Positions 3,290 through 58,585 of a stretch of 64,000 nt of DNA are shown piece after piece. Source of the DNA: Candidatus Multivoradales bacterium (lineage in GTDB: Bacteria; Acidobacteriota; Thermoanaerobaculia; Multivoradales; Multivoraceae); NCBI GenBank assembly GCA_965223325.1, contig CBDCWI010000002.1, positions 3,488,850-3,552,849 on the forward strand. Direction: 5' to 3'. Each line of letters starts with the position of its first letter. Positions within the stretch are counted from its first letter, which is position 1. A program made the translations under genes and the position numbers. The notes under the pieces were generated by a model that had not been told where the DNA came from, did not search any database, and saw nothing but the letters and a program-made list of their open reading frames with translations.

Positions 3290-3350
3290 GTTTCTTCTCC
3301 TTTGGGCTTCAGCCCGGGCGGGCCGGGTCCTTGAATCCATTGTTGGGTTG

Positions 3351-3842
3351 TTACTGTTGGGTTGAGTCTTCCGAGATCGTCAGCCGCGCCGCCGGGCCCA
3401 GCTCGCCGTCTTCGAAGTCAAAGGTCGAGAGTGGCACCGCCTCTACTCCTGCAACTGTTGGGTTGGCATCCGGACCCCCTGCCTCTATCAGCGAATCAAA
3501 CGCACCTCCCGCGGCGGCGAGAATGCCTGAGAGTGCGAGCACACAGGCTGCTGCGGCCAGAGGAATTCTGGCCTTGGCCGTCACCTCGGCGGATGGAGCC
3601 ACGGTCGCCAGGTCCCAACTCACGGCTTCGACCAGCTCGCGGCATTCGGCACAGGAAGCAACGTGCCGCTCCACTGATTCAGAAACACATGATTTGCCAT
3701 TTCTTGCGCCGAGTGCGTGCTCGACAAGGGCGTCTGCATCAGGATGCTGGTCGAGCGCCTTGAGCACCTGAGCGAAGGCCGTCTCGGCACCTTGGGGGAC
3801 AGCGTTTGCGGCTTTGTCGAAGTCTAGGGTTGAGTGACTCAT
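3351..3842 (-). CDS. Putative anti-sigma factor (zinc-binding H-x3-C-x2-C motif, single TM helix)
   Basis: HVASCAECREL matches the ZAS-type HxxxCxxC motif. There is one hydrophobic segment IPLAAAACVLALSGILAAAGGAF. The gene lies directly downstream of an ECF sigma gene on the same strand. Confidence 0.55.
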   Translation of the reverse strand: MSHSTLDFDKAANAVPQGAETAFAQVLKALDQHPDADALVEHALGARNGKSCVSESVERHVASCAECRELVEAVSWDLATVAPSAEVTAKARIPLAAAACVLALSGILAAAGGAFDSLIEAGGPDANPTVAGVEAVPLSTFDFEDGELGPAARLTISEDSTQQ

Positions 3843-4010
3843 CTGGGGTTCCTCTGGCCTCGGGCTCCCTGCCCGGTTGCTCTATAGTCGAGCGCCCGTG
3901 GCTTTTGTTACCGACTTTCTTGAGGTGCCCACAAGACGTCCCGATTCTCGGCCTTCCCCGTGCGAGAAGCGTAGCCGCCGGTCGACCCCCCGGTCGTTGC
4001 CGCTCTCAGA

Positions 4011-10665: not shown

Positions 10666-10666
10666 G

Positions 10667-11512: not shown

Positions 11513-11515
11513 GGA

Positions 11516-13097: not shown

Positions 13098-13108
13098 AGG
13101 GTTGGGCA

Positions 13109-14128
13109 ATGCCTCGAAGTGAACGAGCGCCCGCGGCCGGCTGGACGATCGTCATCCCAACCCACGACACCCGAGAGCTCACCCTCGCGTGTCTCACAAG
13201 GGTTATGGAGGAAGCGCCTCAGGCGACCGTCGTCGTTGTCGACGATGGCAGTCGCGACGGCACGAGCGAAGCGATCGCGGTGGATTTTCCTTCTGCCCTG
13301 GTGCTGCGCAACGAAGAGGCACTTGGCTACACCGGTGCGGTGAACCGGGCGCTCGAGGGCGCCGCGGGTGACTACGTTCTGCTCCTGAATTCGGACGCCG
13401 TGCTGCTTTCTGGTTCGCTCGCCGCCGCTGCCGATGCCTTCGCGCGCGATCCTCGGCTGGGGATCATCGGCGCAGCACTCGAGAATGCCGATGGCAGCCC
13501 ACAGTGGAGCGGCGGCCGGAAGCCGTCAGCGCTGTGGCTATTCGCCCTCGCCTCTGGCCTAGCGAAGCGCCTTGGGCAGAGCGGGCTCTACCGAAGGCTT
13601 CGGCCGCCCGGCGGTTGGAAGCGTGAGGCTGTTCCTGGGGCCGATAAAACGGCGCCTGTCGACTGGGTCTCCGGGGCGGCGATGGCGATTCGCCAGCCGG
13701 TGCTCACGGCGCTTGGACCCCTTCCCGATGTCTACCGGTTCTTCTGCCAGGACCTCGAATACTGCCTTCGGGCCGGGGTCTCTGGTTGGCGTGTGGCCCT
13801 GGTGCCAGCGTTTCGCGTACGCCACCACCTCGGCGCCAGCTCGGTCGCCGAGCTCGCCTCGGATGGCGGTCTGACTGGCGAGCCTGATGAGGATGCTCTG
13901 CGCTTTTCGATCCTCCTCGAAGACCTGGTTCGCTTCTCTGGTCGTGACCTCGGAGGCCCCGGCCCGCAGCAGGCGCAGCGCGCGCTGGCCGCCGGCCTGC
14001 GTTTACGCGGGCTGCTCGAGGTGTTCTTGGGGCCGACTCCGGGGTTCGAGAACGCGGAACTGGATGTCATCGACCTGGCGTGGCGCCTCCGAACCATTGC
14101 CGAGAACGGCGCCGCGACAGGGAGCTGA
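13109..14128 (+). CDS. GT2-family glycosyltransferase
   Basis: ATG 13109 (MPRSERAPAAGWTIVIPTHD...). Motifs VVVVDDGSRDGT, LLLNSDAVL and a DxD-like region. Confidence 0.75.
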   Translation: MPRSERAPAAGWTIVIPTHDTRELTLACLTRVMEEAPQATVVVVDDGSRDGTSEAIAVDFPSALVLRNEEALGYTGAVNRALEGAAGDYVLLLNSDAVLLSGSLAAAADAFARDPRLGIIGAALENADGSPQWSGGRKPSALWLFALASGLAKRLGQSGLYRRLRPPGGWKREAVPGADKTAPVDWVSGAAMAIRQPVLTALGPLPDVYRFFCQDLEYCLRAGVSGWRVALVPAFRVRHHLGASSVAELASDGGLTGEPDEDALRFSILLEDLVRFSGRDLGGPGPQQAQRALAAGLRLRGLLEVFLGPTPGFENAELDVIDLAWRLRTIAENGAATGS

Positions 14129-15248: not shown

Positions 15249-15280
15249 GAGGTCTGCGGCGCGCATTCAGACGCCAACAC

Positions 15281-16504
15281 TTAGCGGCTCAAATCTTGGC
15301 GGCTCAGATCTACTGGCTTGGGCCCAACGGCGGCAGCGGCCGCGAGACACTTACCGACCATCGCAGCAAGCGGAAGCGAAGCGAGGTCTTCTTCGCTCGC
15401 CCAAACGGCCTCGTAGGGAACCTCGGCGACATCAGATCCTCCCGTCGTCCTGTCGGCAGACCACACCGCGGTGCATATCTCGTAAGTGATCTTGTGATTG
15501 GTGATCGAGTGCCGGGCTTCTGGTAGCCGCCGTATCGTCTCGCTACCTTCGGAGCGCCCTACGGCGCAGAAGCTGAACTTGCCGCCAACCCGACGTGCGA
15601 GGCGTTCGGCTGTTTCCTCGCTCGGCCAGAGACGTTCGGCCGCGACCTCAACGTTGGGCAGCTCCCACATCCCCGCTGCGACGCCCTTCTGACGGCCCCC
15701 GCGAGCCGCCCGTTCCCGCGCTAGCAGGTACCGGCCGCTCTTGTCACGCACCAGAGCCACAACGCGACGCACGAGTTTGGGTTCCGCGCGCTGTGGGCGT
15801 AGCGGATACTGGTCCACCGCCCCGATCTCGAAGGCGCGGCAGTCCTCCTTCAGCGGACATCGCCCGCAACGCGCCTTCTTCGGCCGGCAGATGGTCGCCC
15901 CGAGCTCCATCATCGCCTGCACGCTGTCGCCAGAACGTTTCCGGTCCAGAAGCCCGGTCGCCACCTCCTCGATGACGCGGCGACCGACCGCGCGCTTGGG
16001 GTTCTCATCGAGCGCCACCAGTCGTGCGATGACACGCTCTACGTTCCCGTCGATCGCAGCGACTGGTTCGTTCCAGCAGATGCTGGCGACGGCAGCAGCG
16101 GTGTACGCACCGACGCCCGGCAGCTCGCGCAATACCGCAACGCTACGAGGAAAACCGCCGCGCGCCACCAACTCACGCGCCGCTGCATGAAGCATTCGCG
16201 CTCGACGGTAGTAGCCGAGGCCCGACCACTCCGTCAGCACGTCGTCTTCAGTTGCCGTCGCCAGCGCGGCGGGATCGGGAAAGCGCTTCATGAACGATTC
16301 GAAGCGTTCGATCACGACTTCGACGCGCGTTTGTTGGAGCATCACTTCGGATACAAGAACCGGCCATGGTTCTCGCGACGCGCGCCACGGAAGTTCGCGT
16401 TGGTGCTTCAGGTACCAAGTGAGAAGCTTGGCGCTACTAGCGTCGACTCGCTTGTTCAAACCCGTCGATACTCCTCGCAACGTGATCTCTGACGGTCGTG
16501 ACAA
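15281..16504 (-). CDS. mutY: A/G-specific adenine DNA glycosylase
   Basis: LTWYLKHQRELPWRASREPWPVLVSEVMLQQTRVEVVIERFESFMKRFP...LGYYRRARMLHAAAR aligns closely with the MutY N-terminus. There is a HhH-GPD region, a 4Fe-4S Cys cluster C-x6-C-x2-C-x5-C (ICRPKKARCGRCPLKEDC), and a NUDIX-like C-terminal domain. There is no ATG at the 5' end, so the exact TTG or GTG start is uncertain. Confidence 0.85.
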   Translation of the reverse strand: MSRPSEITLRGVSTGLNKRVDASSAKLLTWYLKHQRELPWRASREPWPVLVSEVMLQQTRVEVVIERFESFMKRFPDPAALATATEDDVLTEWSGLGYYRRARMLHAAARELVARGGFPRSVAVLRELPGVGAYTAAAVASICWNEPVAAIDGNVERVIARLVALDENPKRAVGRRVIEEVATGLLDRKRSGDSVQAMMELGATICRPKKARCGRCPLKEDCRAFEIGAVDQYPLRPQRAEPKLVRRVVALVRDKSGRYLLARERAARGGRQKGVAAGMWELPNVEVAAERLWPSEETAERLARRVGGKFSFCAVGRSEGSETIRRLPEARHSITNHKITYEICTAVWSADRTTGGSDVAEVPYEAVWASEEDLASLPLAAMVGKCLAAAAAVGPKPVDLSRQDLSR

Positions 16505-16725
16505 GTCGACCCGCGGCCATCCTTGCGCACCCGCAAACTTTTTTTTGCTGACTCGGATCGCGTAAGTTTCCGTGCTGCGTCACCTTACGCCGAACGACAA
16601 GTGCACCTGGGATAATTTCTCTCTTCAAGACGTTCCCACGCCGTGCATCGCGTGGTATGTTGCCCCTCCTTCGCGGCGCATCCATTGATTCAGTTTGGGG
16701 AGTCGGTAGGTAACCGACAAAATCG

Positions 16726-16758
16726 TTTTTCCGCATTGAGGAAAACTCTGTGGAAAAA
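16726..16758. promoter_or_regulatory. DnaA-box-like 9-mers upstream of dnaA: TTTTCCGCA at 16727-16735 and TGTGGAAAA at 16749-16757
   Basis: These are 7/9 and 8/9 matches to TTATCCACA / TGTGGATAA. A T8 run at 16539-16546 is the most AT-rich spot in the mutY-dnaA spacer. Confidence 0.35.
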
Positions 16759-16774
16759 GACAGGTGGGGTGTAC

Positions 16775-18085
16775 ATGGCTGATTCGACGTGGATTGACCT
16801 CCTCGAGGTCATCCAGGACGAAGTACCTGCAGACGAGTTCAAGACGTGGTTTCGGCCCCTGGCCGTTGAGCACGAAGACCCGAACCGGTTGATCGTTCGA
16901 ACTCCCAGTCGACGCTTTCGCAACGTGCTCGAAGAAAGCTACCGACCGCTGGTCAACCGCGCGATTGCGGGTGTCAAGGGCCAGGCCTACGAGGTCTTGT
17001 TCTCGGTCCAGGAAGAGCCGGAACGGCGCAGTGCCGCACGGCCGAGAAGCCGAAAGGCACATGCACCGACGACCCGCTTCAACTCCAAGTACAGCTTTGA
17101 ATCGTTCGTGGTCGGTTCGTCCAATCAGTTTGCCCACGCCGCGGCGCGAGCCGTCGCAGAGAGTCCCGGTCAAAGCTACAACCCGCTCTTTCTCTACGGC
17201 GGAGTAGGACTCGGCAAGACTCACCTCCTGCACGCTGCGGGACAGGAAGTGCTGCGACGCAACCCTGGCACGCGCATTCTGTACCTGCCGGCCGAACAGT
17301 TCGTCAACGAGCTGATCAACTCGATCCGCTTTGACCGCATGCCGAAGTTCCGCGATCGCTATCGCACGATCGACGTTCTCCTGCTCGACGATGTGCAGTT
17401 CCTGGCCAACAAGGAACGTACCCAGGAAGAGTTCTTCCATACCTTCAACACGCTCTATACGAGCCAGAAGCAGATCATCCTGTCTTCGGACTCGTCGCCA
17501 CGGGACATCCCGATGCTCGAGGAGCGGCTGCGAAGTCGCTTCGAGTGGGGCTTGATCGCCGACATTCAATCTCCCGATCTGGAAACTCGAGTCGCGATCC
17601 TGCGCCGCAAGGCCGATCTGGATGGCATCGAGATGCCGCATGACCTGGCCTTGTTCATCGCCCAGCAGGTGCGCAGCAACATCCGTGAGCTCGAGGGATT
17701 GCTCAATCGGGTCGTTGCTTTCGCGTCTCTGACCGGTCGCAAGATCGATATCGAGCTGGCGCGAGAGACCTTGAAGGACATCCTGCCGCAGACCGATCAC
17801 CGAGTCACTGCCGCCAACGTCATCAAGACCGTTGCGCATCACTATGGCTTGAAGGTGCGCGAGATCAAGAGCAAGAACAACTCTCGCCAGATCGCCTTTC
17901 CGCGTCAGGTGGCGATGTTCCTGTGCAAGCGCCTCACCGACCTTTCCTTCCCGGAGATCGGTCGGCAGTTCAACGACAAGCACCACTCGACGGTGATGTA
18001 TTCGGTCGAGAAGATCGAAAAGCTGCGACAGGAAGACCGTGACCTCGACCGCACGCTCGAGCGCCTGACGCGGCAACTCGCCTAG
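16775..18085 (+). CDS. dnaA: Chromosomal replication initiator protein DnaA
   Basis: ORF 16643..18085. I trimmed it to ATG 16775, which is preceded by AGGTGGGG. Walker [12 protein letters not shown]. Domain IV signature [46 protein letters not shown]. Confidence 0.95.
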
Positions 18086-18424
18086 CTCGCGCCACCCGAA
18101 GGTGATCTCGCCAACCCTCGCTGCTGCCGGGGCCGCCCAACCCTTGAGGCTGGGCCGCGCCTCAGCGCATCCACCGCCGCGGTAAAGGTGGTGGAAAGCC
18201 TGTTGATAAAAGGGTCGGGCTGCGGAGGGCCTCAGCAATCCACATTCCTTCCGCATTTCATCCGCTCGTTCTCCGCAGGCTCTCCGCTGCCGGGTAAACA
18301 GTTCGCCCCTCGCTCAACTCACTCAGCCGGCGGTTCTTGCAGGATCGCTCCGAACTCTCCACCGCACCTACTCCTCCTACTACGACTACCTATATAGTCC
18401 CGTTCACTGAAAGGAGAGGGACCC
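18086..18424. other. dnaA-dnaN intergenic region, candidate oriC or part of it
   Basis: TGTTGATAA at 18201-18209 (8/9 to TGTGGATAA). CAATCCACA at 18236-18244 (7/9 to TTATCCACA). CATCCACCG at ~18169. A short AT-richer patch ctacctatatag near 18388-18399. The position between dnaA and dnaN is the classical oriC site in many bacteria. Confidence 0.35.
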
Positions 18425-19522
18425 ATGGAACTGCGGATCGATCGAGCCGAATTGCTCACCGAGCTCGCCCCGATGCAGGGAGTCGTGGAGCGTAAATCGA
18501 CGATTCCCGTTCTGTCTCACCTGCTGCTGCGGGTGCGCGACGGCAAGCTGCACCTGGCTGCCACTGACCTGGACGTGTCGCTGACGTCCTGGTGTGAGGC
18601 AGACGCCCAGAGCGAAGGAGCTGTTGCAGTTCAGGCTCGCAAGCTGGTCGAGATCGTGCGCGCAATGGCCGGCGACCAGATCCATCTGGCGCTCGAAGAC
18701 GGCAACCAGCTGCGTATTCGTTCCGGTGCTTCGGATTTTCGGATTCACGGGCTGTCTGCTGATGATTTTCCAAGCCTGCCCGAGGTGGGTGATGGCCCCG
18801 CGTTCAGTATTCCGGGCGTCGAGTTCAAGCGCCTGGTGTCGAAGATCTTGTTTGCGGTCTCGGCAGAGGAGTCACGCTTCCAGCTCAACGGTGCGCTCCT
18901 CAAGCTCAAGGGCGGTGGCGTTGAGATGGTGGCCACCGACGGTCACCGGCTGGCGCTCGTTGAAGCCGCCGAGGATGGCGCCAAAGAAGCCGAGGGGGTT
19001 CTGGTGCCGCGCAAGGCGCTTCAGGAGTTACAGCGCTTCGAGAGTGGCGAAGACGTGACCTTCCGGCGTTCTGAGCATCACCTTTCGTTCGCCGTCGGTC
19101 GCCGCGAGTTGATTTGTCGCATCCTCGAAGGCACCTTCCCGGACTACGAGAAGGTGATCTCAAAGGACAACGAACACATCGCCGTGTTCGAGAAGAGTTC
19201 GCTGGCCGACGTCGTCAGCCGCGTGGCGCTTCTGACCGGCGATCGGGCGCGAGCTGTACGCCTGCGCTTCGGTGAAGGTCAGCTCCAGGTTTCGGCACAG
19301 AATCCCGACCTCGGCGAGGCAAAAGAGGAGCTCGAGTGCAGCTACTCCGGGCCCGAGATCGAAATCGGCATCAACCCGGACTATCTGGGCCAGTTCCTCC
19401 AGGCCGTCGAGACGGACAAGGTCGAACTGCAGCTCAAGGACGAGCAGTCACAGTGCGTCGGCGTGCCGGTCGAAGGCGCGGATGCGCGCTACCTGTGCGT
19501 CATCATGCCCATGCGCATCTGA
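18425..19522 (+). CDS. dnaN: DNA polymerase III beta sliding clamp
   Basis: MELRIDRAELLTELAPMQGVVERKSTIPVLSHLLL... is a classic DnaN N-terminus. RBS GAAAGGAGAGGG. Gene order dnaA-dnaN-recF. Confidence 0.95.
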   Translation: MELRIDRAELLTELAPMQGVVERKSTIPVLSHLLLRVRDGKLHLAATDLDVSLTSWCEADAQSEGAVAVQARKLVEIVRAMAGDQIHLALEDGNQLRIRSGASDFRIHGLSADDFPSLPEVGDGPAFSIPGVEFKRLVSKILFAVSAEESRFQLNGALLKLKGGGVEMVATDGHRLALVEAAEDGAKEAEGVLVPRKALQELQRFESGEDVTFRRSEHHLSFAVGRRELICRILEGTFPDYEKVISKDNEHIAVFEKSSLADVVSRVALLTGDRARAVRLRFGEGQLQVSAQNPDLGEAKEELECSYSGPEIEIGINPDYLGQFLQAVETDKVELQLKDEQSQCVGVPVEGADARYLCVIMPMRI

Positions 19523-19610
19523 TTCACACGCCTCCCCTTCCAGACCACGCGAGCGCGGCAGTGACTTCGGTGCAAGATGACCGGAGTCTCGGAGCGGACG
19601 GTGGGTTCGA

Positions 19611-20720
19611 ATGGCGCGCGTTGACGCCCTGACGGTCCGCGGGGTGCGCAACCTCGCCGACCAGGAGTGGCAGCCGGGTGCCGGTGTCCAGCTGCTGCTC
19701 GGTGGAACCGGAGCGGGCAAGACGAGCCTCCTCGAGGCTCTCTACATCGTCGCCACGACCCGGAGCTTCCGGGCACAGCGTCTAGCCGACGTCCAGCGGC
19801 GCGAAGGCGCCCAGGAAGCGCCAACTTCGGAGCAGCAACCGGCAGAAGGCCTCTTTGTGCGTGCCGAGGTCCACGACGTCGGTCGGCGTACACGTCTCGA
19901 GACGGGCTGGAGCCGCAGAGCGGGTCTCGTGCGGTCGGTCAATGGGGACTCCTCGACCCTGGCTGAGCACCTGGCGGTCCTGCCGGTGCTCTGCTGGACC
20001 TCGGCCGATTCCGAAACCCTCACCGGCGAACCCGAGCTGCGTCGGCGGCTCATGGACCGTGGAGTGGTCAACAAGCGCCCCCTTGATCTTGAACTGCTCG
20101 GTCGCTACCGGACGGTGCTTCAGCACAAACGCGGACTGCTCGAGCAACGCGGAGGCGGTCTGGAGGCCTGGAACGGCGTTTTCGCCTCGGCTGCGTCTGC
20201 TCTGGTGGCAGCGCGCGCGGCATATGTTGCAGACCTCGAGCGAGCGTTCTCCGGCGTTCTGGCTGCCACCTCGTTGGGGTGGGATCCCATGCAGTTCGAG
20301 TATCAACCCTCGCCTCGCGAGGCGCTCGACGGCGAAGAGGCGCTTCTGGCAGCTCTGGAAGCCGCGGCGGGCCGCGAGCGCGACGAGCGCCGGCCGCTCC
20401 TCGGGCCGCATCGAGACCGCCTCAAGCTGGTCTGGAAGGGCGAAGAGCTGCGCCGAGTGGCCTCGGCGGGAGAGCGCAAAGGAATCGGCCTCCTGCTTCT
20501 GGCAGCCCAGGCGCGGCTACTCCGGGAAGCCCAGCGGACCCCCATCCACCTCCTGGATGACGCCGATACCGAGCTCGACCGCGACTCCCTCGAGGCCCTC
20601 TGGCAGGTGGTCACCGAGGCCGATCAGACCTTCGTCACATCGAACCGCGGAGGGGTCTGGAAGGGGCTTTTGACGGCGCAGACCTGGAGGGTCGAAAAAG
20701 GGCGAATTTCAGGGGAATAA
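19611..20720 (+). CDS. recF: DNA replication and repair protein RecF
   Basis: Walker A LLLGGTGAGKTSLLEALY. SMC-like signature and a D-loop near the C-terminus (IHLLDDADTELD). Confidence 0.9.
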   Translation: MARVDALTVRGVRNLADQEWQPGAGVQLLLGGTGAGKTSLLEALYIVATTRSFRAQRLADVQRREGAQEAPTSEQQPAEGLFVRAEVHDVGRRTRLETGWSRRAGLVRSVNGDSSTLAEHLAVLPVLCWTSADSETLTGEPELRRRLMDRGVVNKRPLDLELLGRYRTVLQHKRGLLEQRGGGLEAWNGVFASAASALVAARAAYVADLERAFSGVLAATSLGWDPMQFEYQPSPREALDGEEALLAALEAAAGRERDERRPLLGPHRDRLKLVWKGEELRRVASAGERKGIGLLLLAAQARLLREAQRTPIHLLDDADTELDRDSLEALWQVVTEADQTFVTSNRGGVWKGLLTAQTWRVEKGRISGE

Positions 20721-20732
20721 CCCCTTTGTTTT
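20711..20732 (+). terminator. Weak intrinsic-terminator-like hairpin at the recF stop
   Basis: aggggAATAAcccct followed by ttgtttt. The TAA stop is in the loop. Confidence 0.3.
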
Positions 20733-20747
20733 CAAGCACTTAAACCC

Positions 20748-20777
20748 TTGTAAAACAGCAGTTTCACGTGCTAGAAT
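20748..20777 (+). promoter_or_regulatory. Candidate sigma-70-type promoter for gyrB: TTGTAA - 18 bp - TAGAAT
   Basis: ttgtaa at 20748-20753 and tagaat at 20772-20777 lie in the AT-richer recF-gyrB spacer, about 290 bp upstream of the gyrB ATG. Confidence 0.35.
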
Positions 20778-20933
20778 AGGGGCCTACCTCGAGCGGGCTC
20801 AAACGGGTCTCGGAAGGGTCGATCCGGGGCCTTCTGGGGTCTCAAAAGCGGTGGTCTCAAGGGCGCCCTGGAGCTCTGGGCGAACCTCCCATCGATGGCT
20901 TCTCCAGGCATTGGGGAGGTCGAAGAATCCTAG

Positions 20934-23555
<2,622 letters not shown>

Positions 23556-23558
<3 letters not shown>

Positions 23559-23584
23559 TTCTTGTGGTGAAACCACAAGAATCA
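23556..23584 (+). terminator. Perfect 13-bp-stem hairpin overlapping the gyrB stop codon: tgattcttgtggt-gaa-accacaagaatca
   Basis: The two arms are exact reverse complements. The downstream sequence atatgtcttt is only weakly U-rich. The 3' arm is also the first 13 nt of repeat copy 1. Confidence 0.4.
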
Positions 23585-23763
23585 GATATGTCTTTCCCCC
23601 CCAGCCCCCGAATGGGGGGCCCGGAGTTCACTTCGTCGCGCCTTCTTTTGGTGGTGAGTCCTTGAATGTTTGATGGGTTCCAAGTTCGTTCGGCGTGCAA
23701 CCACAAGAATCAGATGCGTCTTTCCCCCCCAGCCCCTATAAGGGGGCCCGGAGTTCACTTCGT
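23571..23763 (+). repeat. Two copies (23571-23636 and 23698-23763) of a ~66-bp element, each with an internal C-run/G-run hairpin. A third accacaag seed lies at ~23797.
   Basis: Copy 1: aaccacaagaatcagatatgtctttcccccccagcccccgaatggggggcccggagttcacttcgt. Copy 2: caaccacaagaatcagatgcgtctttcccccccagcccctataagggggcccggagttcacttcgt. Period 127 bp. The copies differ mainly in the hairpin loop (gaat versus tataa). The shadow ORFs 23518..23706 and 23582..23803 share EVNSGPP.RG.GGK because of this repeat. Confidence 0.8.
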
Positions 23764-23811
23764 GGCCACCCATCAGAACCCTCTTTCCCACCACCTTGAC
23801 CACAAGCCCTT

Positions 23812-26367
23812 ATGAGCGAATCTGACGCTAAGGATCCTTCGGGATCGCCCCCACCTGAACCTCCCCTCGAGACGACGATCCCTGTCGATCTCGAGGATGA
23901 GATGAAGCGTAGTTATCTCGACTATGCGATGTCGGTCATCGTCGGTCGGGCGTTGCCTGATGTGCGCGATGGGTTGAAGCCGGTTCATCGCCGGGTGCTG
24001 TTCGGTATGTGGGAGCAGGGCAATCTGGCGAATCGGCCGTACAAGAAGTCGGCGCGCATCGTTGGTGATGTCATGGGTAAGTACCACCCGCATGGCGACA
24101 ACGCGATCTACGACACGGTGGTGCGTATGGCGCAAGACTTCTCGCTGCGCTATCCGATGGTCGATGGGCAGGGCAACTTCGGGTCGGTGGACGGTGACAA
24201 CCCGGCGGCTATGCGCTACACCGAAGTGCGCATGACGCGCCTGGCGCAGGAGCTTCTGCGCGAGGACATCGACAAAGAGACCGTCGACTGGATTCCGAAC
24301 TACGACGGCTCGGAGCAGGAGCCCGCGGTTCTGCCGGCGCGCTTTCCGAGCCTCCTGGTCAATGGGTCGGCGGGTATTGCGGTGGGCATGGCCACCAACA
24401 TTCCGCCCCACAACCTCACCGAAGTCATTGCGGCGCTCAAGTTGATGATCGAGAACCCGCAGGTGACGCTCAAGGAGTTGATGGAGGCTCTGCCGGGGCC
24501 CGACTTTCCGACCGGCGGCACGATCAGCGGTGCGGCGGGTATTCAGAGCGCCTACGCCACCGGTCGCGGCACGGTGATCATTCGCTCGAAGGCGCACTTC
24601 GAGGAGCGGAAGGGCGACCGGGAGTCGATCGTCGTCACCGAGATCCCCTACCAGGTCAACAAGGCGCGCCTGATCGAGAAGATCGCCGACCTGGTGCGCG
24701 ACAAGCGCATCGAGGGCATCTCCGACCTGCGCGACGAGTCAGACCGCGATGGCATGCGCATCGTCATCGAGCTCAAGCGTGGTGTGATCGCCGATGTCAT
24801 CCTCAACCAGCTCTACAAGATGAGCCAGCTGCAGGTCTCGTTCGGCATGAACATGTTGGCGATCGTCGACGGCCAGCCCAAGCTGCTTGCCTTGCCAGAC
24901 TTCTTGCGGCACTTCCTCGACCACCGCAAGACGGTGGTCATTCGGCGGGCACGCTACGACCTTAGAAGAGCCGAGGAGCGCGCCCACATCTTGGAAGGGC
25001 TGCTCAAGGCGCTCGACCACATCGACGAGATCATCACCACGATTCGCCAGAGCGCCACTCCGCCCGAGGCCAAGGAAAGCCTCATCGAGCAGTTCGCGTT
25101 CAGCGCGGTTCAGGCGCAGGCGATTCTCGAAATGCGTTTGCAGCGCCTGACCGGTCTCGAGCGCGATAAGTTGCTCGAGGAGTTCCAGACCCTTATGGCC
25201 GAGATCGAGCGACTACGCGCCATTCTCGGATCCGACCAGCTGGTGCTCGAGGAGATCAGCCGCGAGCTCGACGAGATCCTCGAGGCCTACGGCGACGAAC
25301 GGCGATCCGAGATCGTTGCGACGACCGACGAGATCACCATCGAAGACATGATCGCCGACGAAGACATGGTGGTCACGGTCTCGAACTCGGGCTATATCAA
25401 GCGCACGGCGCTCTCCGAGTACCGCGCCCAGGGGCGCGGTGGCAAGGGTCGCAAGGGCATGCAAACCAGGGATGAGGACTTCGTCGCCCACGTCTTTGTC
25501 GCTTCGGCGCACAGCTACCTCCTCGTGATTACCGACCGCGGTCAGATCTACTGGCTCAAGGTCCATCGCATTCCCGAGGTCGGGCCGGCGGCGCGCGGCA
25601 AGGCGATCGTCAACCTGCTGCAGCTCGACGAGGAGAAGCTCGCTGCCGTCGTCGCGGTCAAGGAGTTTCCCGAAGATCGCTACCTCGTGTTTGCGACCGA
25701 GAAAGGCACGATCAAGAAGACCCCGCTCTCGGCCTACTCGCGACCGCGCCCGAGTGGAATCATCGCCATCCGCATTGACGACGACGACTCGCTTCTCAGC
25801 GTGCGCGTAGCCGATGGAGGTACCGACGTCTTCATGGCCACTGCGGCAGGCTACTCGGTGCGTTTCCCCGAAGACGACACCCGCGCCATGGGCCGCGTCG
25901 CGCGGGGTGTGCGCGGCATCAAGCTGCGCGAAGGCGACCGGGTGGTGTCGATGGAGGTGCTCGAGGCCGAGGGCGACATTCTGACCGTTACCGAGAACGG
26001 TTACGGAAAGCGCACCCTCATGAGCGAGTACCGGCGCCAGGGTCGTGGTGGCCTGGGAATCATCAACCTCAAGGTCTCCGAAAAGACCGGGCAGGTTGTT
26101 GGCGCACGACAGGTCCTCGAGGAACAAGGCGCCATGCTGATCACCGAGGAAGGAAAGATCATTCGCATTACCGCGAGCGACGTTTCGAGGATCGGGCGCT
26201 CGACCCAGGGCGTCAAGGTCATGGACCTCGATGAGGGCGACACCCTGGTGGCGATGGCGAAGATTCCGGAGACCGAAGACGAAAACGAGGAAGGTTCTTC
26301 CGAGGAGCGTGCTTCCGAGGAGGGCGCGCCAGACGCTCCCAACGAGCCCGACGAACCGGTCAACTAG
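23812..26367 (+). CDS. gyrA: DNA gyrase subunit A
   Basis: The QRDR-region block [20 protein letters not shown], the active-site Tyr context ([10 protein letters not shown]) and the C-terminal beta-pinwheel repeats are present. Confidence 0.95.
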
Positions 26368-50718: not shown

Positions 50719-50895
50719 GTCGAAGTCTCGCCCCGAAGTGTTCGGGAAGGGAACGCGGATCATTCCACAACTGTCGCTGTGGTGTCGTTCTCCCTTCCGA
50801 AGCCCTTCACCGGCTTGACCAAGAGGTCATCCGTCGCGAGGGGCTTTGTGAGGAGGCCCTTCGTGCGCTTCCAGGGCTCTTCCGTCGAAAGCCTC

Positions 50896-51564
50896 TCAGG
50901 GCTCGGGAACGGCGGTCGGCTCGTGCATGGCGTCCATGCCGCGGGCAACAAACTCATTGACCTTCTGGGCGTGGGCCTGGATGAGCTTCACCACGTAGGG
51001 GTCGTCAGAGGTTTCGGTGACTCGAACTCCGTCTTCGAGAAGTTCCGTCTTCACGACGATCTTGTCGGCGTGGTTGAAGATCTCGACGAACAGGGGGTCC
51101 CAGTGGCGGATACTGCCACCGTTCTCGACTAGCGCGACCATCTGCCCGACATGGGTTTGGAGGGTTTCGACGAGCTCCGGTTCGTCGGTTGTGGTGACCG
51201 CGATGATGCCGTATTCAATGTTCTCCACCGCGCGGTGGATCGAACGATGGTTATCCATCAGGCCATGGATGTTGCCCATGAGCGCCCGATGGTCGCCGCC
51301 TCTGCGCCCGTGCTCGCCCTGGCCCTTCCGGTGGCCTCTTCCCGTACGGCCCTCGCCGTGCTTCGCACCGTCGGCGTTCCTATGAGGGCACTCCATTCCG
51401 CCCTTTTCGCCGGCGCTGTCCCTCATCATCGGACAGCCTGCGTGCTCCCCTTCTGCCTTGGCACCATGAGCGTGGCCCTCCTGAGCTACAGCCGGCGCCA
51501 GGAGCCCGGAGAACAGGATGAGGATGCTGGTGATCGCAAGCCTGGTTCGGTTTTCATAAGTCAT
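50896..51564 (-). CDS. Secreted His/Gly-rich protein, possible periplasmic metal-binding protein
   Basis: Signal peptide MTYENRTRLAITSILILFSGLLAPAVAQ. The mature N-terminus is rich in H-x-G and G-E-H (HAHGAKAEGEHAGCPMM...HGEGRTGRGHRKGQGEHGRRGGDH). It is followed by a folded C-terminal domain. Confidence 0.55.
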   Translation of the reverse strand: MTYENRTRLAITSILILFSGLLAPAVAQEGHAHGAKAEGEHAGCPMMRDSAGEKGGMECPHRNADGAKHGEGRTGRGHRKGQGEHGRRGGDHRALMGNIHGLMDNHRSIHRAVENIEYGIIAVTTTDEPELVETLQTHVGQMVALVENGGSIRHWDPLFVEIFNHADKIVVKTELLEDGVRVTETSDDPYVVKLIQAHAQKVNEFVARGMDAMHEPTAVPEP

Positions 51565-51615
51565 GAGGTTCTGCTTCCCTGGAATGTTGAGCGGGTGGGC
51601 TTCTGGGCGCGAGGC

Positions 51616-52047
51616 TCAGGCGGCCGAAACGGTTTCGACGACTTCGAGAAGAGATGCGCGGACCTCGCGGCCGACTTCGGCGAGCTCGGTGTTGTCGAGC
51701 ATCTCCATGACCGGCTGAGGGTTCATGGCGCGCACCATGGTCTTGCCGTCTTCGACCGAAAGGGTGACGTTGCAGGGCAGAAAGACACCGACCGAAGGGG
51801 CCGCTCCGATCGCCTTGTAGGCCGACGGAGGGTGGCACGCGCCGAGGATGACGTAGGGCTCCATCTCGACGTCCAGCTTCTTACGAAGCGTTGCCTGGAT
51901 GTCGATCTCGGTGAGAACTCCGAAACCGCGTTCTGCCAGCGCCTTGCGTGCAGCGGCAACGGCGTCGCCGAAAGGTAGAGCACTCTCGGCTTCGAGGGCC
52001 ACCATCGATTCCTTGATCTGGGGTGTGGCTGTTTGGCGATCGGCCAT
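51616..52047 (-). CDS. DUF302-family protein
   Basis: About 143 aa with the characteristic GACHPPSAYK / FLPCNVTL blocks of DUF302. Confidence 0.65.
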   Translation of the reverse strand: MADRQTATPQIKESMVALEAESALPFGDAVAAARKALAERGFGVLTEIDIQATLRKKLDVEMEPYVILGACHPPSAYKAIGAAPSVGVFLPCNVTLSVEDGKTMVRAMNPQPVMEMLDNTELAEVGREVRASLLEVVETVSAA

Positions 52048-52182
52048 GGTCGTAAGATCCCTTCGCTTCGGTGGATTGGAGAGACGCGAGTCGAGTCCCG
52101 TTCAAGAGATGCAGGAACGGCGCGATTGGTCACAACCTCAGCAGCCAAACGGGCAGCGCCCGACCCCCCGATTCGATTCGTC

Positions 52183-52776
52183 TCAGGCGGATTGCGGCAG
52201 CCACTGGCCGAGTTGAGAGCGCAGAGCCTGGCGGGCCCGTGAGAGGCGCATCTTGACCGCCGACTCGCCGATCTCGAGAGCATCGGCTGTTTCTCGGGTG
52301 CTCAGTCCCTCGACGTCGCGCAGAAGGAACGTGATGCGCTCTTCGCGAGAAAGAGTCCGCGTGGCCCGCGCCAGCTGGCGGCGGAACTCGGCTCGCTCGG
52401 CCGCATCGCGTGGCAGGTCGCCCCATGCCGGCGAGCGGTCGAGCTGAACCCCGAGCCAGTCGCGATCGGAGAGCTCCTCGAGCTGAACCTCGGGCCCCGG
52501 CGGGTTTTGACGTCTGGTCATCAGGCACTGATTCGCCACGACGCGAAACAGCCAAGCGCGGATCGCCCGCGGGTCGCGCAGTTGCGACAGTCCCTGAAAG
52601 ACACGCAGCAGGGTCTCCTGGTAGACGTCTTCGGCGTCGGCATTCGGGCCGCACTGCCGGCGCCCGAAGCCGCGAATCATCGCGCCATAGCGGTCGACGA
52701 ACGCGTCGAAAGCACCGGCCTCCTGGCGCTGGACGGCCTCGAGCAGGCGTGCGTCGTGGTGAGCTCGAGAGGGCAT
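52183..52776 (-). CDS. ECF-type RNA polymerase sigma factor
   Basis: Region 2 is EDVYQETLLRVFQGLSQLRDPRAIRAWLFRVVANQCL. Region 4 is LSTRETADALEIGESAVKMRLSRARQAL. Confidence 0.8.
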   Translation of the reverse strand: MPSRAHHDARLLEAVQRQEAGAFDAFVDRYGAMIRGFGRRQCGPNADAEDVYQETLLRVFQGLSQLRDPRAIRAWLFRVVANQCLMTRRQNPPGPEVQLEELSDRDWLGVQLDRSPAWGDLPRDAAERAEFRRQLARATRTLSREERITFLLRDVEGLSTRETADALEIGESAVKMRLSRARQALRSQLGQWLPQSA

Positions 52777-53234
52777 GATCCATTATGTGCCAGTGCCGCA
52801 GTCGCCGTCTGGCCCCGACCGCCGGGCCCCGGCCGCTAGAGCAACCACACGATCTCACGGCATGGGGAAGAGCGCCTCGAGCAGGTCTCCCTCGCTCATC
52901 AACTCAATCTCACCAACTACGTGCCGAGCCCGCAGCTTGCGTTGGTGTTCGCGCAGGTCTTCGAAACCCCGACCGACGCAATCTTTGAACTGGAGACGAA
53001 GACGTGAGTTTCCTGAACCGCCTGGTTCGACGAGCGCTTCCTGGCCCATCGCCGACGCTCGACAGCGCTCGCCGGCCAAGCACCTTCTCGAACCGAACGC
53101 CCTGCTATCCCACCATTGGACTGATGGCATCAAGGGTTTTCTGTACGGCTTCGATCGCCCTGATGCTTTGTGGGGTCTGGAAGGGCGGTCGGGCGAGGCA
53201 GGTCGAGGGCCTGGTGCCCTCGCGCCCTCGCCCG

Positions 53235-55634
53235 TCAGTCGGAGCGCAGTGCGGCACTTGGGTCCGCGCGGGTCGCCCTGAGTGCGGGAGCAACAGAAGC
53301 CAGAAAGGCAACCGTGAGGAGCACCGCCGGCGTCACCAGAAAGGTCGCGGGATCAAGCGCCTCGACGCCGTAGAGCAGGGAACCGAGAAAGCGGGTCAGA
53401 GCCAGGGCGCCGGCCAGCCCGATGAGGATTCCTGCCAGCGTCAGCGCCAGGCCCTGTCCTACTACCAGGCGCAAGATGTCGCGCCTCTCGGCGCCGAGCG
53501 CGCTCCGAATGCCGAATTCACGGCTTCGGCAGCTGACCGAGTAGCGCAAGACACCGTAGAGACCCATCGCGGCGAGGAGGAGCGCGCCGAGGCCCAGGCC
53601 CCCCACTCCGCCGATTCCCATCATCCATGGCCCGAGCCATGTCGCGATCACCTGGTTCATGCCGCGCACGTTCTCGAGCGGTAGGTTCGGGTCGATCGAC
53701 GTGATGGCTGCCTTGATGGCCGGCCACGAGCTGGTTGGGCTGCTGGCAGTGCGCGCGACGACGAAACGGCGGCCGGTCGACGACTGGCGCTGCGGATAGA
53801 ACACCATCATGCCCGGCTCCTCGTCGAGCTCGAAGTAGCGAGCAGATTCGACCACTCCGACCACTTCGCGGCGCGTACCGCGGATCTCGATCTGTTGGCC
53901 GAGTGCACCCTGCTCCGGCCAGAGCCGCGTCTCCATGTCGTGGTTGACGATCACCACCGGCGGACTGTCGGGGCCGTCGAACTGGTTGAAGGAGCGCCCG
54001 GAAAGGAGTGCAGTTCCGGCGACCTCGAACCAGTCACCGCTGATCCACATACTGCTGGCGAAGAGCTGCTCGTCGGCGGGTTGGCCAGGCACCGAGAAGC
54101 CCGTACCGGGCCGCTCGTGGTTGAGCGGCAAGGGGTAGATCGACGCCACCGCTTCTACACTCGGGACATTTCGGATGCGTTCCGTGGCCGCTTCAAAGTA
54201 CTGCCTTTCCTGCGCGTCGTCGGGGTAGCTCGACTTCGGAAGTTTCACTTCGAATGTCAGGAGCCGGGCGGGCTCGAAGCCAAGATCGACGCTGCGCAAC
54301 GTTTGCAATGTCTTGACCATCAGCCCAGCACCGACCACCAGGAGCACCGCTAGCGACACCTGCGCAACGACGAAGGTGTTGCGCAGCCGCCGACTTCGCT
54401 GCGCGTCACTGTTTCCCGAACCGCCGCTGCGGACTGCCTCGGCAAGTTGAACGGCGGTCGTCGAAAAGGCCGGGACGAGGCCGAAAACGGCGACACACGA
54501 GAGTGAAACCAGGAGCGTAAAGCCAAGGGTGGCGAGGTCGACGTCGACCTGCCCTACCCGATAGAGCTCGCCGGGCAATGCGCGGTCGAGAACCTGACAG
54601 GCCCAGGTTGCGACCACCACGCCGAGGGCTCCACCGACGACCGCCAACAGAGCGTTCTCGGTCAGTAGCTGGCGCACCAGGCGCTTGCGGGGTGCTCCCA
54701 GGGTCAGCCGGAAGGCGATCTCGCGCTCGCGGTCCTGTCCGCGGGCGAGAAGGAGATTGGCGAGGTTGGCGCAGACGATCAGAACGACAAAGGCGACCGC
54801 CAGGAGCAGAACGGGAAACACCACCGAGAAGATGTCCCAGGTAAAGAGTAGCTGCGAGCGCAGGTCAACGACGTTCGCACCGACCCGATCGTTGGTCGCT
54901 GCATGCTCGCGCTCGAGATCCTTCATCAACGAGTCCAACTCCGCCTGCCCGGTGCTTGGCGATTCGCCGTCTGCAAGGCGGCCCACGACTAGAAGCGGCC
55001 CATTCCTGTCTCGCTGGTCGCGGTAGGGCTCGAGTGACAGCGGAGTCCAGAGGTCCATCCGGTTGAATGGAAAAACGAAGCTCTCGGGCATCACACCGAC
55101 GACGGTGTACGGCTTGTTGTCGAGCAGCAGTTGTTCGCCCACAATGTCACCTCGCCCGCCGAAACTGCGCCGCCAGAAGCCGTGACTGAGAAGCACGACC
55201 GCGTCATTCTCGCTGTCATCCTCATCGAACGCACGCCCGATCATCGGCGGCACACCGAGCAGGTCGAGCAGGTTCGGCGTCAGCCAAGTGGCATCGAGGG
55301 TCTCGGCTTCGGCACCTCCGGTGCGCACGAAGGAACCGTAGAAGTAGCCGCCCATGTCCGAGAACGTTCGCGAGCTCCGGCGCAGATCTTCGTAGTTCGG
55401 TACCGACATGCGTGCCGCGTCGTAGTCGATCTTGCCGTCGGTCTGCCAGATGTGAACCAGCCGGTCGGGATCCTCGAAGGGCATCGGGCGCAGCAGGAAC
55501 GCGTTGACCAGGCTGAAGACCGCTGTGATCAGCCCGATGCCGAGCCCCAGGGTGACGATGCTCACCAGGGAAAAGGCCGGGCTGCGCCGAAGGATCCGCA
55601 GTCCGAACTTCAGGTCGTCGAAAAACCGTGTCAT
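53235..55634 (-). CDS. Duplicated FtsX-domain ABC transporter permease (MacB-like; ADOP-type orphan permease)
   Basis: N-terminal MTRFFDDLKFGLRILRRSPAFSLVSIVTLGLGIG followed by a large periplasmic domain. There are two FtsX 4-TM modules (...IGLAGALALTRFLGSLLYGV...). No adjacent ABC ATPase gene is present. Confidence 0.8.
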   Translation of the reverse strand: MTRFFDDLKFGLRILRRSPAFSLVSIVTLGLGIGLITAVFSLVNAFLLRPMPFEDPDRLVHIWQTDGKIDYDAARMSVPNYEDLRRSSRTFSDMGGYFYGSFVRTGGAEAETLDATWLTPNLLDLLGVPPMIGRAFDEDDSENDAVVLLSHGFWRRSFGGRGDIVGEQLLLDNKPYTVVGVMPESFVFPFNRMDLWTPLSLEPYRDQRDRNGPLLVVGRLADGESPSTGQAELDSLMKDLEREHAATNDRVGANVVDLRSQLLFTWDIFSVVFPVLLLAVAFVVLIVCANLANLLLARGQDREREIAFRLTLGAPRKRLVRQLLTENALLAVVGGALGVVVATWACQVLDRALPGELYRVGQVDVDLATLGFTLLVSLSCVAVFGLVPAFSTTAVQLAEAVRSGGSGNSDAQRSRRLRNTFVVAQVSLAVLLVVGAGLMVKTLQTLRSVDLGFEPARLLTFEVKLPKSSYPDDAQERQYFEAATERIRNVPSVEAVASIYPLPLNHERPGTGFSVPGQPADEQLFASSMWISGDWFEVAGTALLSGRSFNQFDGPDSPPVVIVNHDMETRLWPEQGALGQQIEIRGTRREVVGVVESARYFELDEEPGMMVFYPQRQSSTGRRFVVARTASSPTSSWPAIKAAITSIDPNLPLENVRGMNQVIATWLGPWMMGIGGVGGLGLGALLLAAMGLYGVLRYSVSCRSREFGIRSALGAERRDILRLVVGQGLALTLAGILIGLAGALALTRFLGSLLYGVEALDPATFLVTPAVLLTVAFLASVAPALRATRADPSAALRSD

Positions 55635-55868
55635 GGCTAAGTCCCCCCCGTCAGTGGGTGGTTCCTGGTCGACGGAATTGGAGTACGCAGCAGTCTTTGG
55701 GATAGACGCGAGATCAGCCCGACTGTTTCAGGGCTGGAGCAACCGAGGATGGCAGCGTGGATGTCGGGGCCTAAGGGGGCTACGGTATTCCCAGAGGCCC
55801 ATCGGTGGCGCCAACGCGCTAACCTCTAGCGCTCCATCGCGAAGAACGGAAGAAACCGAACGGACCCT

Positions 55869-56438
55869 TTGTACCCTAGTGGAGTGCGATACCCAATGAC
55901 ACCCAAACACCAGTACCCGCAACCCGCTTCCCTTAGAGACGGTCGTCTCGTGACCCTGCGCCCCTTTGAAGCGGACGACGCCGACGAACTGTTCGATTTT
56001 TTCCAGAGACTGCCGGAGGACACGCGCCGGTTCGCCTGGGACCGTGTCGATCTCAAGGCGACCGCAGAGGGCTGGGCCACCAACATCGACTACGACAAGG
56101 TCTTTCCGCTTCTCGCGCTCGACGGGTCCCGCATCGTCGCCGACGCCACGCTCCATCGCCGCGAGTTCTCTCCGCTACGCCTCGTGGGTCGCATCAAGTG
56201 GTTGATCGACCCGGAGTACCGCAAAGACGGCCTGGGATCGATTCTGGTCAACCGCTTGATCGACCATGGTCGGCAGCACGGGTTACGCCACCTCACCTGC
56301 ATGCTGATTTCGGACCTCGAGGCCGATGCTGTCGAGACGTTGACCGAGCTCGGCTTCAGCAGCTACCAGATTCCTGGCTATGGTGCCGATCCCGATGGCG
56401 GCCAGCACGACATGACGAAGTTGGTCTACAAGTTGTAG
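55869..56438 (+). CDS. GNAT-family N-acetyltransferase
   Basis: The acetyl-CoA-binding block is RKDGLGSILVNRLIDHGRQHG (R/Q-x-x-G-x-G/A pattern). Confidence 0.7.
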   Translation: MYPSGVRYPMTPKHQYPQPASLRDGRLVTLRPFEADDADELFDFFQRLPEDTRRFAWDRVDLKATAEGWATNIDYDKVFPLLALDGSRIVADATLHRREFSPLRLVGRIKWLIDPEYRKDGLGSILVNRLIDHGRQHGLRHLTCMLISDLEADAVETLTELGFSSYQIPGYGADPDGGQHDMTKLVYKL

Positions 56439-56442
56439 CTGG

Positions 56443-56839
56443 CATCGTGGTTTTACGGCCTTTGGGTCGCGACGGGCGAGTGGAAGGCGGTTCAGTTGGG
56501 GGCCTGGGCTCCCTTTTTCGGCGCGCCGTTACCACGACGCCAGCTACCGATCACACTTGCGGCGCAAGCGTAGCGTTGCCGTTGCCGTCATCCCAGGCGA
56601 TCGCCCTGTCACGGCGCCCTGGACCTTCGATGGTCCGTCGCGCGCCGCGGATTCCTGGCTTCGTTGAAACGAAGAGATGCGTGCTGTTTGATCTGAAGGC
56701 CGCTCGGGTGGCATCGTGGTTTTACGGCCTTTGGGTCGCGACGGGCGAGTGGAAGGCGGTTCAGTTGGGGGCCTGGGCTCGCCTTTTCGGCGCGCCGTTA
56801 CCACGACGCCAGCGACCGATCACACTTGCGGCGCAAGCG
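56443..56839. repeat. Two direct copies (56443-56571 and 56709-56839) of a ~130-bp element, ~97% identical, in the spacer between the convergent GNAT and ruvB genes
   Basis: Each copy reads ggcatcgtggttttacggcctttgggtcgcgacgggcgagtggaaggcggttcagttgggggcctgggctc[c/g]c[t]ttttcggcgcgccgttaccacgacgccagc[t/g]accgatcacacttgcggcgcaagcg. The 5' end gcatcgtgg can pair with ccacgacgc near the 3' end (9 of 10 pairs). Each copy ends with a cttgc-ggc-gcaag hairpin. The 137-bp segment between copies contains the hairpin cttcgtt-gaa-acgaag. Confidence 0.85.
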
Positions 56840-56856
56840 GTCCGTGGCGCGACGGG

Positions 56857-57882
56857 CTAGAACAGTCGGCCGCTCTCTCCGGGCCTTGCCGGGGGAGTGA
56901 CCCCGAGGTGCTCCCACGCTCTTCGGGTGGCGACGCGGCCTCGTTGGGTGCGCTTCAGGAATCCCTCCTGAATCAAGTAGGGCTCGTAGAGGTCTTCGAG
57001 GGTGCCTTCGTCTTCTCCCACCGAGGCGGCGATGGCCTTCAACCCTGCGGGGCCGCCGTCGTAGTGCTCGATCAGGACCTTGAGCAGCTTGCGGTCGACT
57101 TCGTCGAAGCCGTTCTTGTCGACTTCCAGTTTGTCGAGAGCGCTACTGGCGGCGGCGGTGGTGATGACGCCGTCGCCTTCGACCTGTGCGAAGTCGCGCA
57201 CTCGACGCAGCAATCGGTTGGCGATGCGCGGGGTGCCGCGACTACGGCGGGCGATCTCCTGGGCGCCGCCATTGTCGCATTGGATCTCGAGCAGGCGGGC
57301 AGAGCGCTCAACGATCGAGGCGAGGTGTTCGGGCGAGTAGAAGTCGAGACGGTGCACGATGCCGAAGCGGGCGCGCAGAGGCGGTGTGATCAAACCGGCG
57401 CGCGTGGTGGCGGCGACGAGGGTGAAGTGCGGCAGCGGCAGGCGCACCGTGCGGGCGGCGGGGCCCTGGCCGATCACCAGGTCGAGCTCGTAGTCCTCGA
57501 GTGCGGGGTAGAGGATCTCTTCGATGGTCGGGCCGAGGCGATGAATCTCGTCGATGAACAGGACTTCGCCGGCTTCGAGGTTGGTGAGAATCGCCGCCAG
57601 GTCACCGGCGCGTTCGAGGACCGGGCCTGAGGTCGACCGCAGTGGAGCCCCCATTTCGTTGGCGATGATGTGGGCGAGGGTGGTCTTGCCGAGACCGGGA
57701 GGGCCGAAGAGCAGCACGTGGTCGAGTGGTTCGTTGCGGTTGCGAGCCGCCTCGAGAAAAACCCGCATCTTGTCGGTGATGCCCTCCTGGCCGACGTAGT
57801 CATCGAGGGTCTTGGGGCGCAATGCGGGCTCGAAGTTGGTGTCGTCCGGGCTGGGCGCCGCCGTGAGGATGCCTTCTTTCAT
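56857..57882 (-). CDS. ruvB: Holliday junction branch migration ATPase RuvB
   Basis: Walker [23 protein letters not shown]. Sensor and arginine finger regions. Winged-helix C-terminal domain. Confidence 0.95.
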
Positions 57883-57970: not shown

Positions 57971-58585
57971 CTAGGCCCGCGAGAGGCGCTTGAGGCTGCG
58001 GCGCAAGAGTTCCTGAAACGCTTGGCTCGGCTCTTCCTCCGAGGCGGCGGCAACTGCACGTTCGGCTTCTTTGGCGCGGTAGCCCAGGTTGAGAAGCGCT
58101 TCGATGACGTCGCGCTCGGCGCTCGAAGGCAGCTCTGGCGCGACACTCTCGGGGTCGGTTTCCATCAGCTCGCGCGCCTTGTCGCGCAGCTCGAGAATCA
58201 TCCGCTCGGCGGTTTTCTTGCCGACCCCCGGGATGCGCGTGAGCTTGGCGATATTCGAAGACGCGAGAGCCCCGAGTACTTCCTCGGGGGGCATGCCCGA
58301 GAGAATCACCTGCGCCAGGCGCGGGCCGATTCCCGAAACCGCGATCAGCTTCTCGAACAAGGCCTTTTCCTGCGCGCTGTCGAAACCGAAGAGTTCGAGC
58401 GCGTCATCGCGCACGTGGGTGTGGACGAGTAGAGAAACGTCATCGGGGGTGTCGGCGCGCCAAACGGCGTCGAGTTTGTAGAAGGTCGGCAGCGCGATGC
58501 GCACCGAGTAACCGACGCCGCCAACCTCGATGAGGGCGAGGTCGGGTCCAAGCGCTTTGACCCGGCCGCGTAACGATCCGATCAT
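57971..58585 (-). CDS. ruvA: Holliday junction DNA helicase subunit RuvA
   Basis: MIGSLRGRVKALGPDLALIEVGGVGYSV is a classic RuvA N-terminus. HhH motifs (IPGVGKKTAERMILEL). About 204 aa. Confidence 0.9.
   Translation of the reverse strand: MIGSLRGRVKALGPDLALIEVGGVGYSVRIALPTFYKLDAVWRADTPDDVSLLVHTHVRDDALELFGFDSAQEKALFEKLIAVSGIGPRLAQVILSGMPPEEVLGALASSNIAKLTRIPGVGKKTAERMILELRDKARELMETDPESVAPELPSSAERDVIEALLNLGYRAKEAERAVAAASEEEPSQAFQELLRRSLKRLSRA

Follow-up and report, generated by a model that had tools for sequence, protein, structure and literature searches.

The spacer between two convergent genes of a Candidatus Multivoradales bacterium, one for a GNAT acetyltransferase and the other ruvB, holds two almost identical copies of a sequence of about 130 bp, and this raises the question of what such a pair is and how it came to lie there. 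A reading made from the letters alone (hereafter the sequence-only reading) had offered three answers, namely a genome-specific repeat family, duplicated structured sRNA genes, or att-like duplications left by an excised element. In our analysis of the 64-kb stretch of DNA that contains the spacer (the window), the first of these is compatible with everything seen, the second finds no support and the third is disfavoured. The pair is most likely an ordinary lineage-specific intergenic repeat rather than a new RNA gene. The locus is laid out as follows, in window coordinates.

55869-56438, + strand: GNAT acetyltransferase gene (Pfam), coding for a conserved Thermoanaerobaculia protein with an intact C-terminus (...KL*)
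56440-56570, + strand: repeat copy A, 131 nt, beginning 1 nt past the GNAT stop codon
56571-56708, no strand assigned: segment between the copies, 138 nt, unique within the window
56709-56839, + strand: repeat copy B, 131 nt, 128/131 identical to copy A, ending 17 nt before the ruvB stop codon
56857-57882, − strand: ruvB (Pfam), C-terminus intact (...LF*)
57971-58585, − strand: ruvA, upstream of ruvB, followed by a SurA-like PPIase gene

The copies had been described as direct repeats of about 130 bp and about 97% identity, with some three differing positions, in the spacer between convergent GNAT and ruvB genes. Both genes are confirmed by Pfam, and the repeats are present with their boundaries shifted by a few bases; pairwise alignment and a script count give exactly 3 mismatches and 0 gaps over the 131 nt (97.7% identity), at copy A positions 56512 (C in A, G in B), 56514 (T in A, C in B) and 56545 (T in A, G in B). 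A and B share one orientation in a convergent spacer of 418 nt, which measures about 155 nt without them, an ordinary size for a convergent spacer. Because the flanks of A and B are unrelated on both sides, the boundaries of the repeat are sharp. A 40-mer from the repeat unit occurs exactly twice in the 64-kb window (0 occurrences expected), and neither blastn-short nor a covariance model found a further copy of the unit there. Tandem Repeats Finder, run on the window, does not list the pair because it amounts to fewer than 2 periods. The G+C content of the unit (65%, versus 64.4% for the window) equals that of the genome and thus gives no hint of a recent foreign origin. The two shadow ORFs noticed earlier (56198..56860 and 56716..57630) exist as well, and they read both copies in one register, as 269 and 518 each leave a remainder of 2 on division by 3.

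It is also evident that the arrangement of genes around the pair is peculiar to this lineage. To the left of GNAT lie genes for MacB/FtsX, an ECF sigma factor, a DUF302 protein and a hypothetical protein, and beyond them thrA-hom, asd, thrB and thrC; the remainder of the window consists of housekeeping genes, including dnaA-dnaN-recF-gyrB-gyrA, and no transposase, integrase or reverse transcriptase is encoded anywhere in the 64 kb. The closest non-self matches are 78% identical for RuvB and 82% identical for the GNAT protein, and those with names come from Thermoanaerobaculia / Acidobacteriota MAGs. In the relatives' loci L001-L004, ruvB has downstream of it, in the same direction, a DAGK-like gene or thrA-hom-asd-thrB, the latter standing either directly after ruvB or behind the DAGK gene. 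In loci L041-L043 the GNAT gene is found at another place, and the next gene, 20-60 nt further on, codes for a metallophosphoesterase or a CBS protein; in L042 it is an uncharacterised ORF. The downstream gaps in the relatives are 20-130 nt long in 5 of the 6 loci examined, the other being a gap of 438 nt after ruvB in L002. Because GNAT and ruvB are not neighbours in the relatives and the gaps downstream of them are short, both the convergence of the two genes and the 418-nt spacer, with its roughly 400 extra bases, are specific to the lineage. Compared with the relatives, the GNAT and ruvB products keep the conserved C-termini listed above. The genes from the hypothetical one to GNAT make up a block of about 6 kb (50764-56438) between thrA-hom and ruvB; the two copies lie where this block meets ruvB, and no copy is present at the block's other junction.

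To look for other copies, sequences from the unit were used as queries in progressively wider collections. In a blastn comparison with the 7 loci from relatives, no sequence similar to the unit or the spacer was found. Similarly, a covariance model built from the two copies scores those copies only (176 and 173 bits) and nothing in the relatives' loci, the next-best match (17.9 bits) being a self-match of the inverted repeat. A 20-mer from the 5' end of the unit has 0 matches in 185,579 species genomes, a null that speaks against a young dispersed family only if the source genome is among those 185,579 with the window masked. The central 18-mer has 19 matches in the 185,579 species genomes, and the right-arm 18-mer has 17 matches in metagenomes; all of these are seed-only chance matches. 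Moreover, viral collections yielded 0 matches in two scans, one of which used a gapped inverted-repeat pattern, and blastn against plasmids and phages returned no match to the repeat. Across these searches, the element appears to match nothing known and to have no known relatives.

Each copy contains an inverted repeat and a number of smaller hairpins, whose positions, together with that of the bases just left of copy A, are given below.

56436-56439, + strand: TAGC directly left of copy A, including the GNAT stop codon TAG
56440-56451, no strand assigned: left arm of the inverted repeat in copy A (TGGCATCGTGGT); in copy B at 56709-56720
56498-56518, + strand: intrinsic-terminator-like motif in copy A, GGGGGC-CTGG-GCTCCC followed by TTTTT
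56531-56542, no strand assigned: right arm of the inverted repeat in copy A (ACCACGACGCCA); in copy B at 56800-56811
56556-56568 (copy A) and 56825-56837 (copy B), no strand assigned: CTTGC-GGC-GCAAG hairpin in the 3' tail
56649-56664, no strand assigned: hairpin CTTCGT-TGAA-ACGAAG in the segment between the copies, 6 pairs around a 4-nt loop

The sequence-only reading had proposed a long-range terminal helix in each copy and a cttgc-ggc-gcaag hairpin near its end. The hairpin was recovered in both copies, and the helix exists with a length of 12 bp, TGGCATCGTGGT pairing with ACCACGACGCCA around an enclosed 79 nt; one of its positions reads A.C, a mismatch, on the + strand and pairs as G.U on the − strand. 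Among 500 dinucleotide shuffles of the unit, 20 (4%) contain an inverted repeat of this length or more, and the 12-bp inverted repeat taken alone is only marginally beyond chance. The left arm starts exactly at base 1 of the repeat unit, which adds specificity to an otherwise modestly unusual structure. At the other end the right arm stops 28 nt short of the boundary and a 28-nt tail follows within the unit, so the termini are not symmetric. The helix is lengthened to 16-17 bp in copy A only, because there the left flank TAGC, with the GNAT stop codon in it, pairs with an internal GCTA, at which copy B reads GCGA.

The minimum free energy folds of copy A reach -70.2 kcal/mol on the + strand and -63.2 kcal/mol on the − strand, and the folding z-scores are -3.0 (+) and -3.7 (−) for copy A and -1.4 (+) and -3.4 (−) for copy B. 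In the interior of the unit, separate small hairpins are predicted that differ between A and B, and the 3 substitutions alter these predicted hairpins instead of preserving them. Two of the 3 (at 56512 and 56514) fall within the terminator-like motif and both weaken it in copy B; the motif inside copy A is the only terminator-like site on either strand between 55800 and 57400. As for the segment between the copies, which had been given as 137 bp with a hairpin of 7 bp, the hairpin is there, although with one pair fewer and in a segment one nucleotide longer, and the overall structure of the 138 nt is no greater than in shuffles.

The repeat element is non-coding. In A, B and the spacer alike, G+C content stays level across the three codon positions whichever of the six frames is read, whereas GNAT and ruvB show the strong GC3/GC2 contrast of this genome. 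The concatenated six-frame translation has no match among 5.8 billion proteins, a test of low power because the called ORFs cover not even the two known copies. An ORF of 86 aa on the − strand (56544-56804) resembles low-complexity shadow sequence. The unit is open in all three + frames and interrupted by stops in all three − frames, which is probably a by-product of G+C content. Copy A lies in frame with GNAT (56436-56573), and if the TAG stop of this gene were read through, the protein would gain 44 residues (LASWFYGLWVATGEWKAVQLGAWAPFFGAPLPRRQLPITLAAQA) up to a TAG directly after the repeat. A type I toxin-antitoxin system of the Sib/Ibs type was considered and rejected, as none of the six frames holds a short hydrophobic ORF with a start codon.

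The bases that border the copies bear on how they arose. The TAGC directly left of copy A is found again directly right of it (56571-56574), and the two may be a 4-bp target-site duplication; copy B, with CGGG on its left and GTCC on its right, shows no duplication. Deletion of copy A together with one TAGC leaves ...TTGTAGCG..., and the same pentanucleotide stands after GNAT in the nearest relative (L041), which reads TGTAGCG at that place. If copies of the unit were inserted here, the empty site would be a spacer of about 155 bp reading ...TTGTAGCGTTGCC.... The sharp boundaries, the four unrelated flanks, the inverted repeat from base 1 and the possible 4-bp duplication in the flanks of copy A suggest that these are the traces of a small non-autonomous transposable or duplicative repeat. 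Moreover, four unrelated flanks are not the pattern of a simple tandem duplication.

The reading that we tentatively prefer, with somewhat less than even confidence, is that the pair represents a young and lineage-restricted non-coding intergenic repeat of 131 bp of the MITE/ERIC class, which is present twice and forms 3'-UTR stem-loops. The lack of any relative anywhere, the genome-like G+C content, the candidate terminal inverted repeat and the possible 4-bp target duplication are all compatible with a repeat family; against a MITE/ERIC-class element stand the fact that only 2 copies are known and these are adjacent, the asymmetric termini, the missing duplication at copy B, the lack of a transposase in the window, the marginal significance of the inverted repeat by itself and the changes that the 3 substitutions make to the inner hairpins. 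Bacterial MITEs include, for example, the Correia elements of Neisseria and RUP of the pneumococcus. The repeat resembles them in its size class (about 100-150 bp), its non-coding nature, its intergenic site close to gene ends, its possible inverted-repeat termini, the possible short duplication flanking copy A and the long stem-loop that would form upon transcription. It differs from them in that only 2 copies are known and these are adjacent, the right arm ends 28 nt before the boundary, no duplication flanks copy B and no partner transposase was identified in the window. A survey of bacterial MITEs is given in PMC11602168.

ERIC (or IRU) sequences of enterobacteria are about 127 bp long and lie in transcribed intergenic regions, where their RNA stem-loops may affect transcript stability. 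They are imperfect palindromes over their whole length and occur in many copies, and RNA-level roles similar to those of REP sequences have been proposed for them. Size, intergenic location and predicted RNA stem-loops are shared with the present repeat, in which, unlike in ERIC, pairing is confined to 12 bp near the ends and the enclosed 79 nt do not form a palindrome. A whole-length ERIC-like palindrome was rejected for the unit, as only the 12-bp arms pair and the interior consists of separate small hairpins. REP sequences are palindromes of 20-40 bp that are tagged with GTAG or CGTC and occur in high copy number, and roles in termination and mRNA stabilisation have been proposed for them (PMC3733652). 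What the present repeat has in common with REP and BIME is an extragenic palindromic sequence at gene 3' ends, for which the same roles could be proposed, together with a GTAG before copy A and a CGTC in the − strand arm. However, this GTAG is no more than the context of the stop of GNAT, copy B lacks it, and no RAYT gene is present in the window. With a unit of 131 nt, 2 known copies and a GTAG beside copy A only, REP/BIME was rejected as an identification.

Under the MITE/ERIC-class reading, the element would be a small non-autonomous unit with inverted-repeat termini that was recently (2.3% divergence) copied into each edge of a convergent spacer originally about 155 bp long, and the possible TAGC duplication around copy A suggests that it spread by transposition-like insertion. 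Its effect would probably be at the RNA level only: transcription reading through from either convergent gene would produce one very stable stem-loop per copy, at -63 to -70 kcal/mol, and on the + strand copy A would additionally offer a hairpin with a U-run. Such stem-loops could terminate or insulate convergent transcription and shield 3' ends from exonucleases, and it is by inference only that we assign them a functional role in read-through GNAT or ruvB transcripts.

A two-step local duplication is almost as likely as a MITE/ERIC-class element. Such an event would be neutral, without mobility or function, and is in our view less likely than not. Template switching or slippage during replication may have placed a second copy of a 131-bp stretch of the spacer 269 bp further downstream, or a tandem duplication of 269 bp may have been followed by loss of the second spacer. 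The copies would then be young, or would have been kept alike by gene conversion. That the only two known copies are adjacent, in the same orientation and 97.7% identical fits such an origin, and so does the lack of a copy elsewhere in the collections searched and of mobile-element genes nearby; yet a simple tandem event would have repeated the 138-nt spacer too, and this segment is not repeated. A second local direct repeat (55-75 nt) in the gyrB-gyrA spacer of the same window indicates that local duplications in spacers do occur in this genome. On the other hand, the coincidence of the left boundary with the start of the inverted repeat and the TAGC on either side of copy A count against a local copying event.

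It is improbable that the copies are sibling small-RNA genes in tandem, each giving a putative structured RNA about 100-130 nt in length, or that they act as structured RNAs derived from the 3' UTR of ruvB or GNAT. A tandem arrangement of near-identical sRNA genes is known from PrrF1/PrrF2, OmrA/OmrB and AbcR1/AbcR2, and the present pair shares with these the two near-identical units of about 130 nt, separated by some 140 nt within a single intergenic region. The unit has a significant folding energy, and more strongly so on the − strand, on which G.U replaces the A.C mismatch; copy A has in addition, on the + strand, a hairpin followed by U5. However, unlike those sibling genes, the copies lie between convergent gene ends, no sigma-70-like promoter was found for the repeat units, no terminator stands at the end of a unit and none of the 7 loci from relatives conserves them. 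The terminator on the + strand, which is weakened in copy B, lies in the middle of the unit and gives no reason for the 52 conserved nt beyond it, whereas the − strand has no terminator at all. Rfam at the gathering score gives 0 matches in the window, and at E<=10 on both strands it gives nothing inside the repeats. The 3 differences between the copies are too few to show covariation, and they alter the inner hairpins. The proposal of duplicated structured sRNA genes thus gains no support from the Rfam search, the promoter search, the place of the terminator or the relatives.

A more far-reaching outcome is likewise unlikely in our view, namely that the pair represents a structured non-coding RNA that has not been described before, or a new family of MITEs with TG...CA tips like those of IS3 and a 4-bp target duplication, which is confined as a sibling pair to one Thermoanaerobaculia lineage and shapes 3'-end formation of ruvAB and GNAT. 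An assembly artefact, that is, a single copy spuriously duplicated in a long-read metagenome assembly, is very unlikely; the source is a single contig, but a unique spacer of 138 nt and 3 point differences between the copies would be unusual for polishing or collapse errors. Least probable of all is that the copies are attL/attR-type direct repeats from an integrative element whose interior was almost wholly deleted, for although their size is like that of some att duplications and the locus is a lineage-specific junction of gene order, the 64-kb window contains no tRNA or tmRNA (ARAGORN) and no integrase or recombinase, only 138 non-coding nt of genome-like G+C separate the repeats, no similarity to phages, plasmids or viral contigs was found, and every testable defining feature of att-like duplications from an excised element failed.

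Two further kinds of known system were compared and rejected. A TR/VR pair of a diversity-generating retroelement does not fit, as no reverse transcriptase is encoded in the window, both copies are non-coding and one of their differences is C/G. For an integron attC site or CALIN, inspection of the sequence found TGGTAAC near the 5' end and GTAAAAC near the 3' end on the − strand, neither of which fits RYYYAAC/GTTRRRY, and no integron integrase is present.

The repeat accounts for an unusually long convergent spacer and for two spurious overlapping ORFs, and in this respect has little import beyond annotation. The pair also draws attention to what may be a young repeat or MITE in a class of Acidobacteriota that has been little studied. 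Should dispersed copies be present in the full genome, the element could serve as a marker for strain typing and for studies of genome plasticity in the lineage; if the copies are transcribed as a sibling RNA pair, they would constitute a new RNA family.

The direct repeat in the gyrB-gyrA spacer (23550-23770) consists of units of about 55-75 nt at 23567-23640 and 23695-23767, which are 128 nt apart, show 85% identity over 55 nt and are unrelated to the 131-nt repeat. Each unit carries a CCCCC-loop-GGGGG hairpin and ends in GGAGTTCACTTCGT, and before the first unit an 18-bp perfect palindrome, ATATCTGATTCTTGTGGT-GAA-ACCACAAGAATCAGATAT, overlaps the gyrB stop codon. Rfam has no match for this spacer repeat, which may combine a gyrB terminator with a duplicated regulatory sequence of gyrA. 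The two gyrase genes belong to the replication-origin cluster dnaA-dnaN-recF-gyrB-gyrA, which lies within 15249-26367. A gene-free gap of 1.4 kb upstream of dnaA (15249-16642) is a candidate oriC. A search for DnaA boxes of the E. coli type (TTATCCACA, <=1 mismatch) showed no enrichment (3 found versus 2.6 expected). Other unusually long stretches without a convincing ORF, according to a gene sketch based on GC3, are found at 10666-11515, 13098-13558 and 3341-4010.
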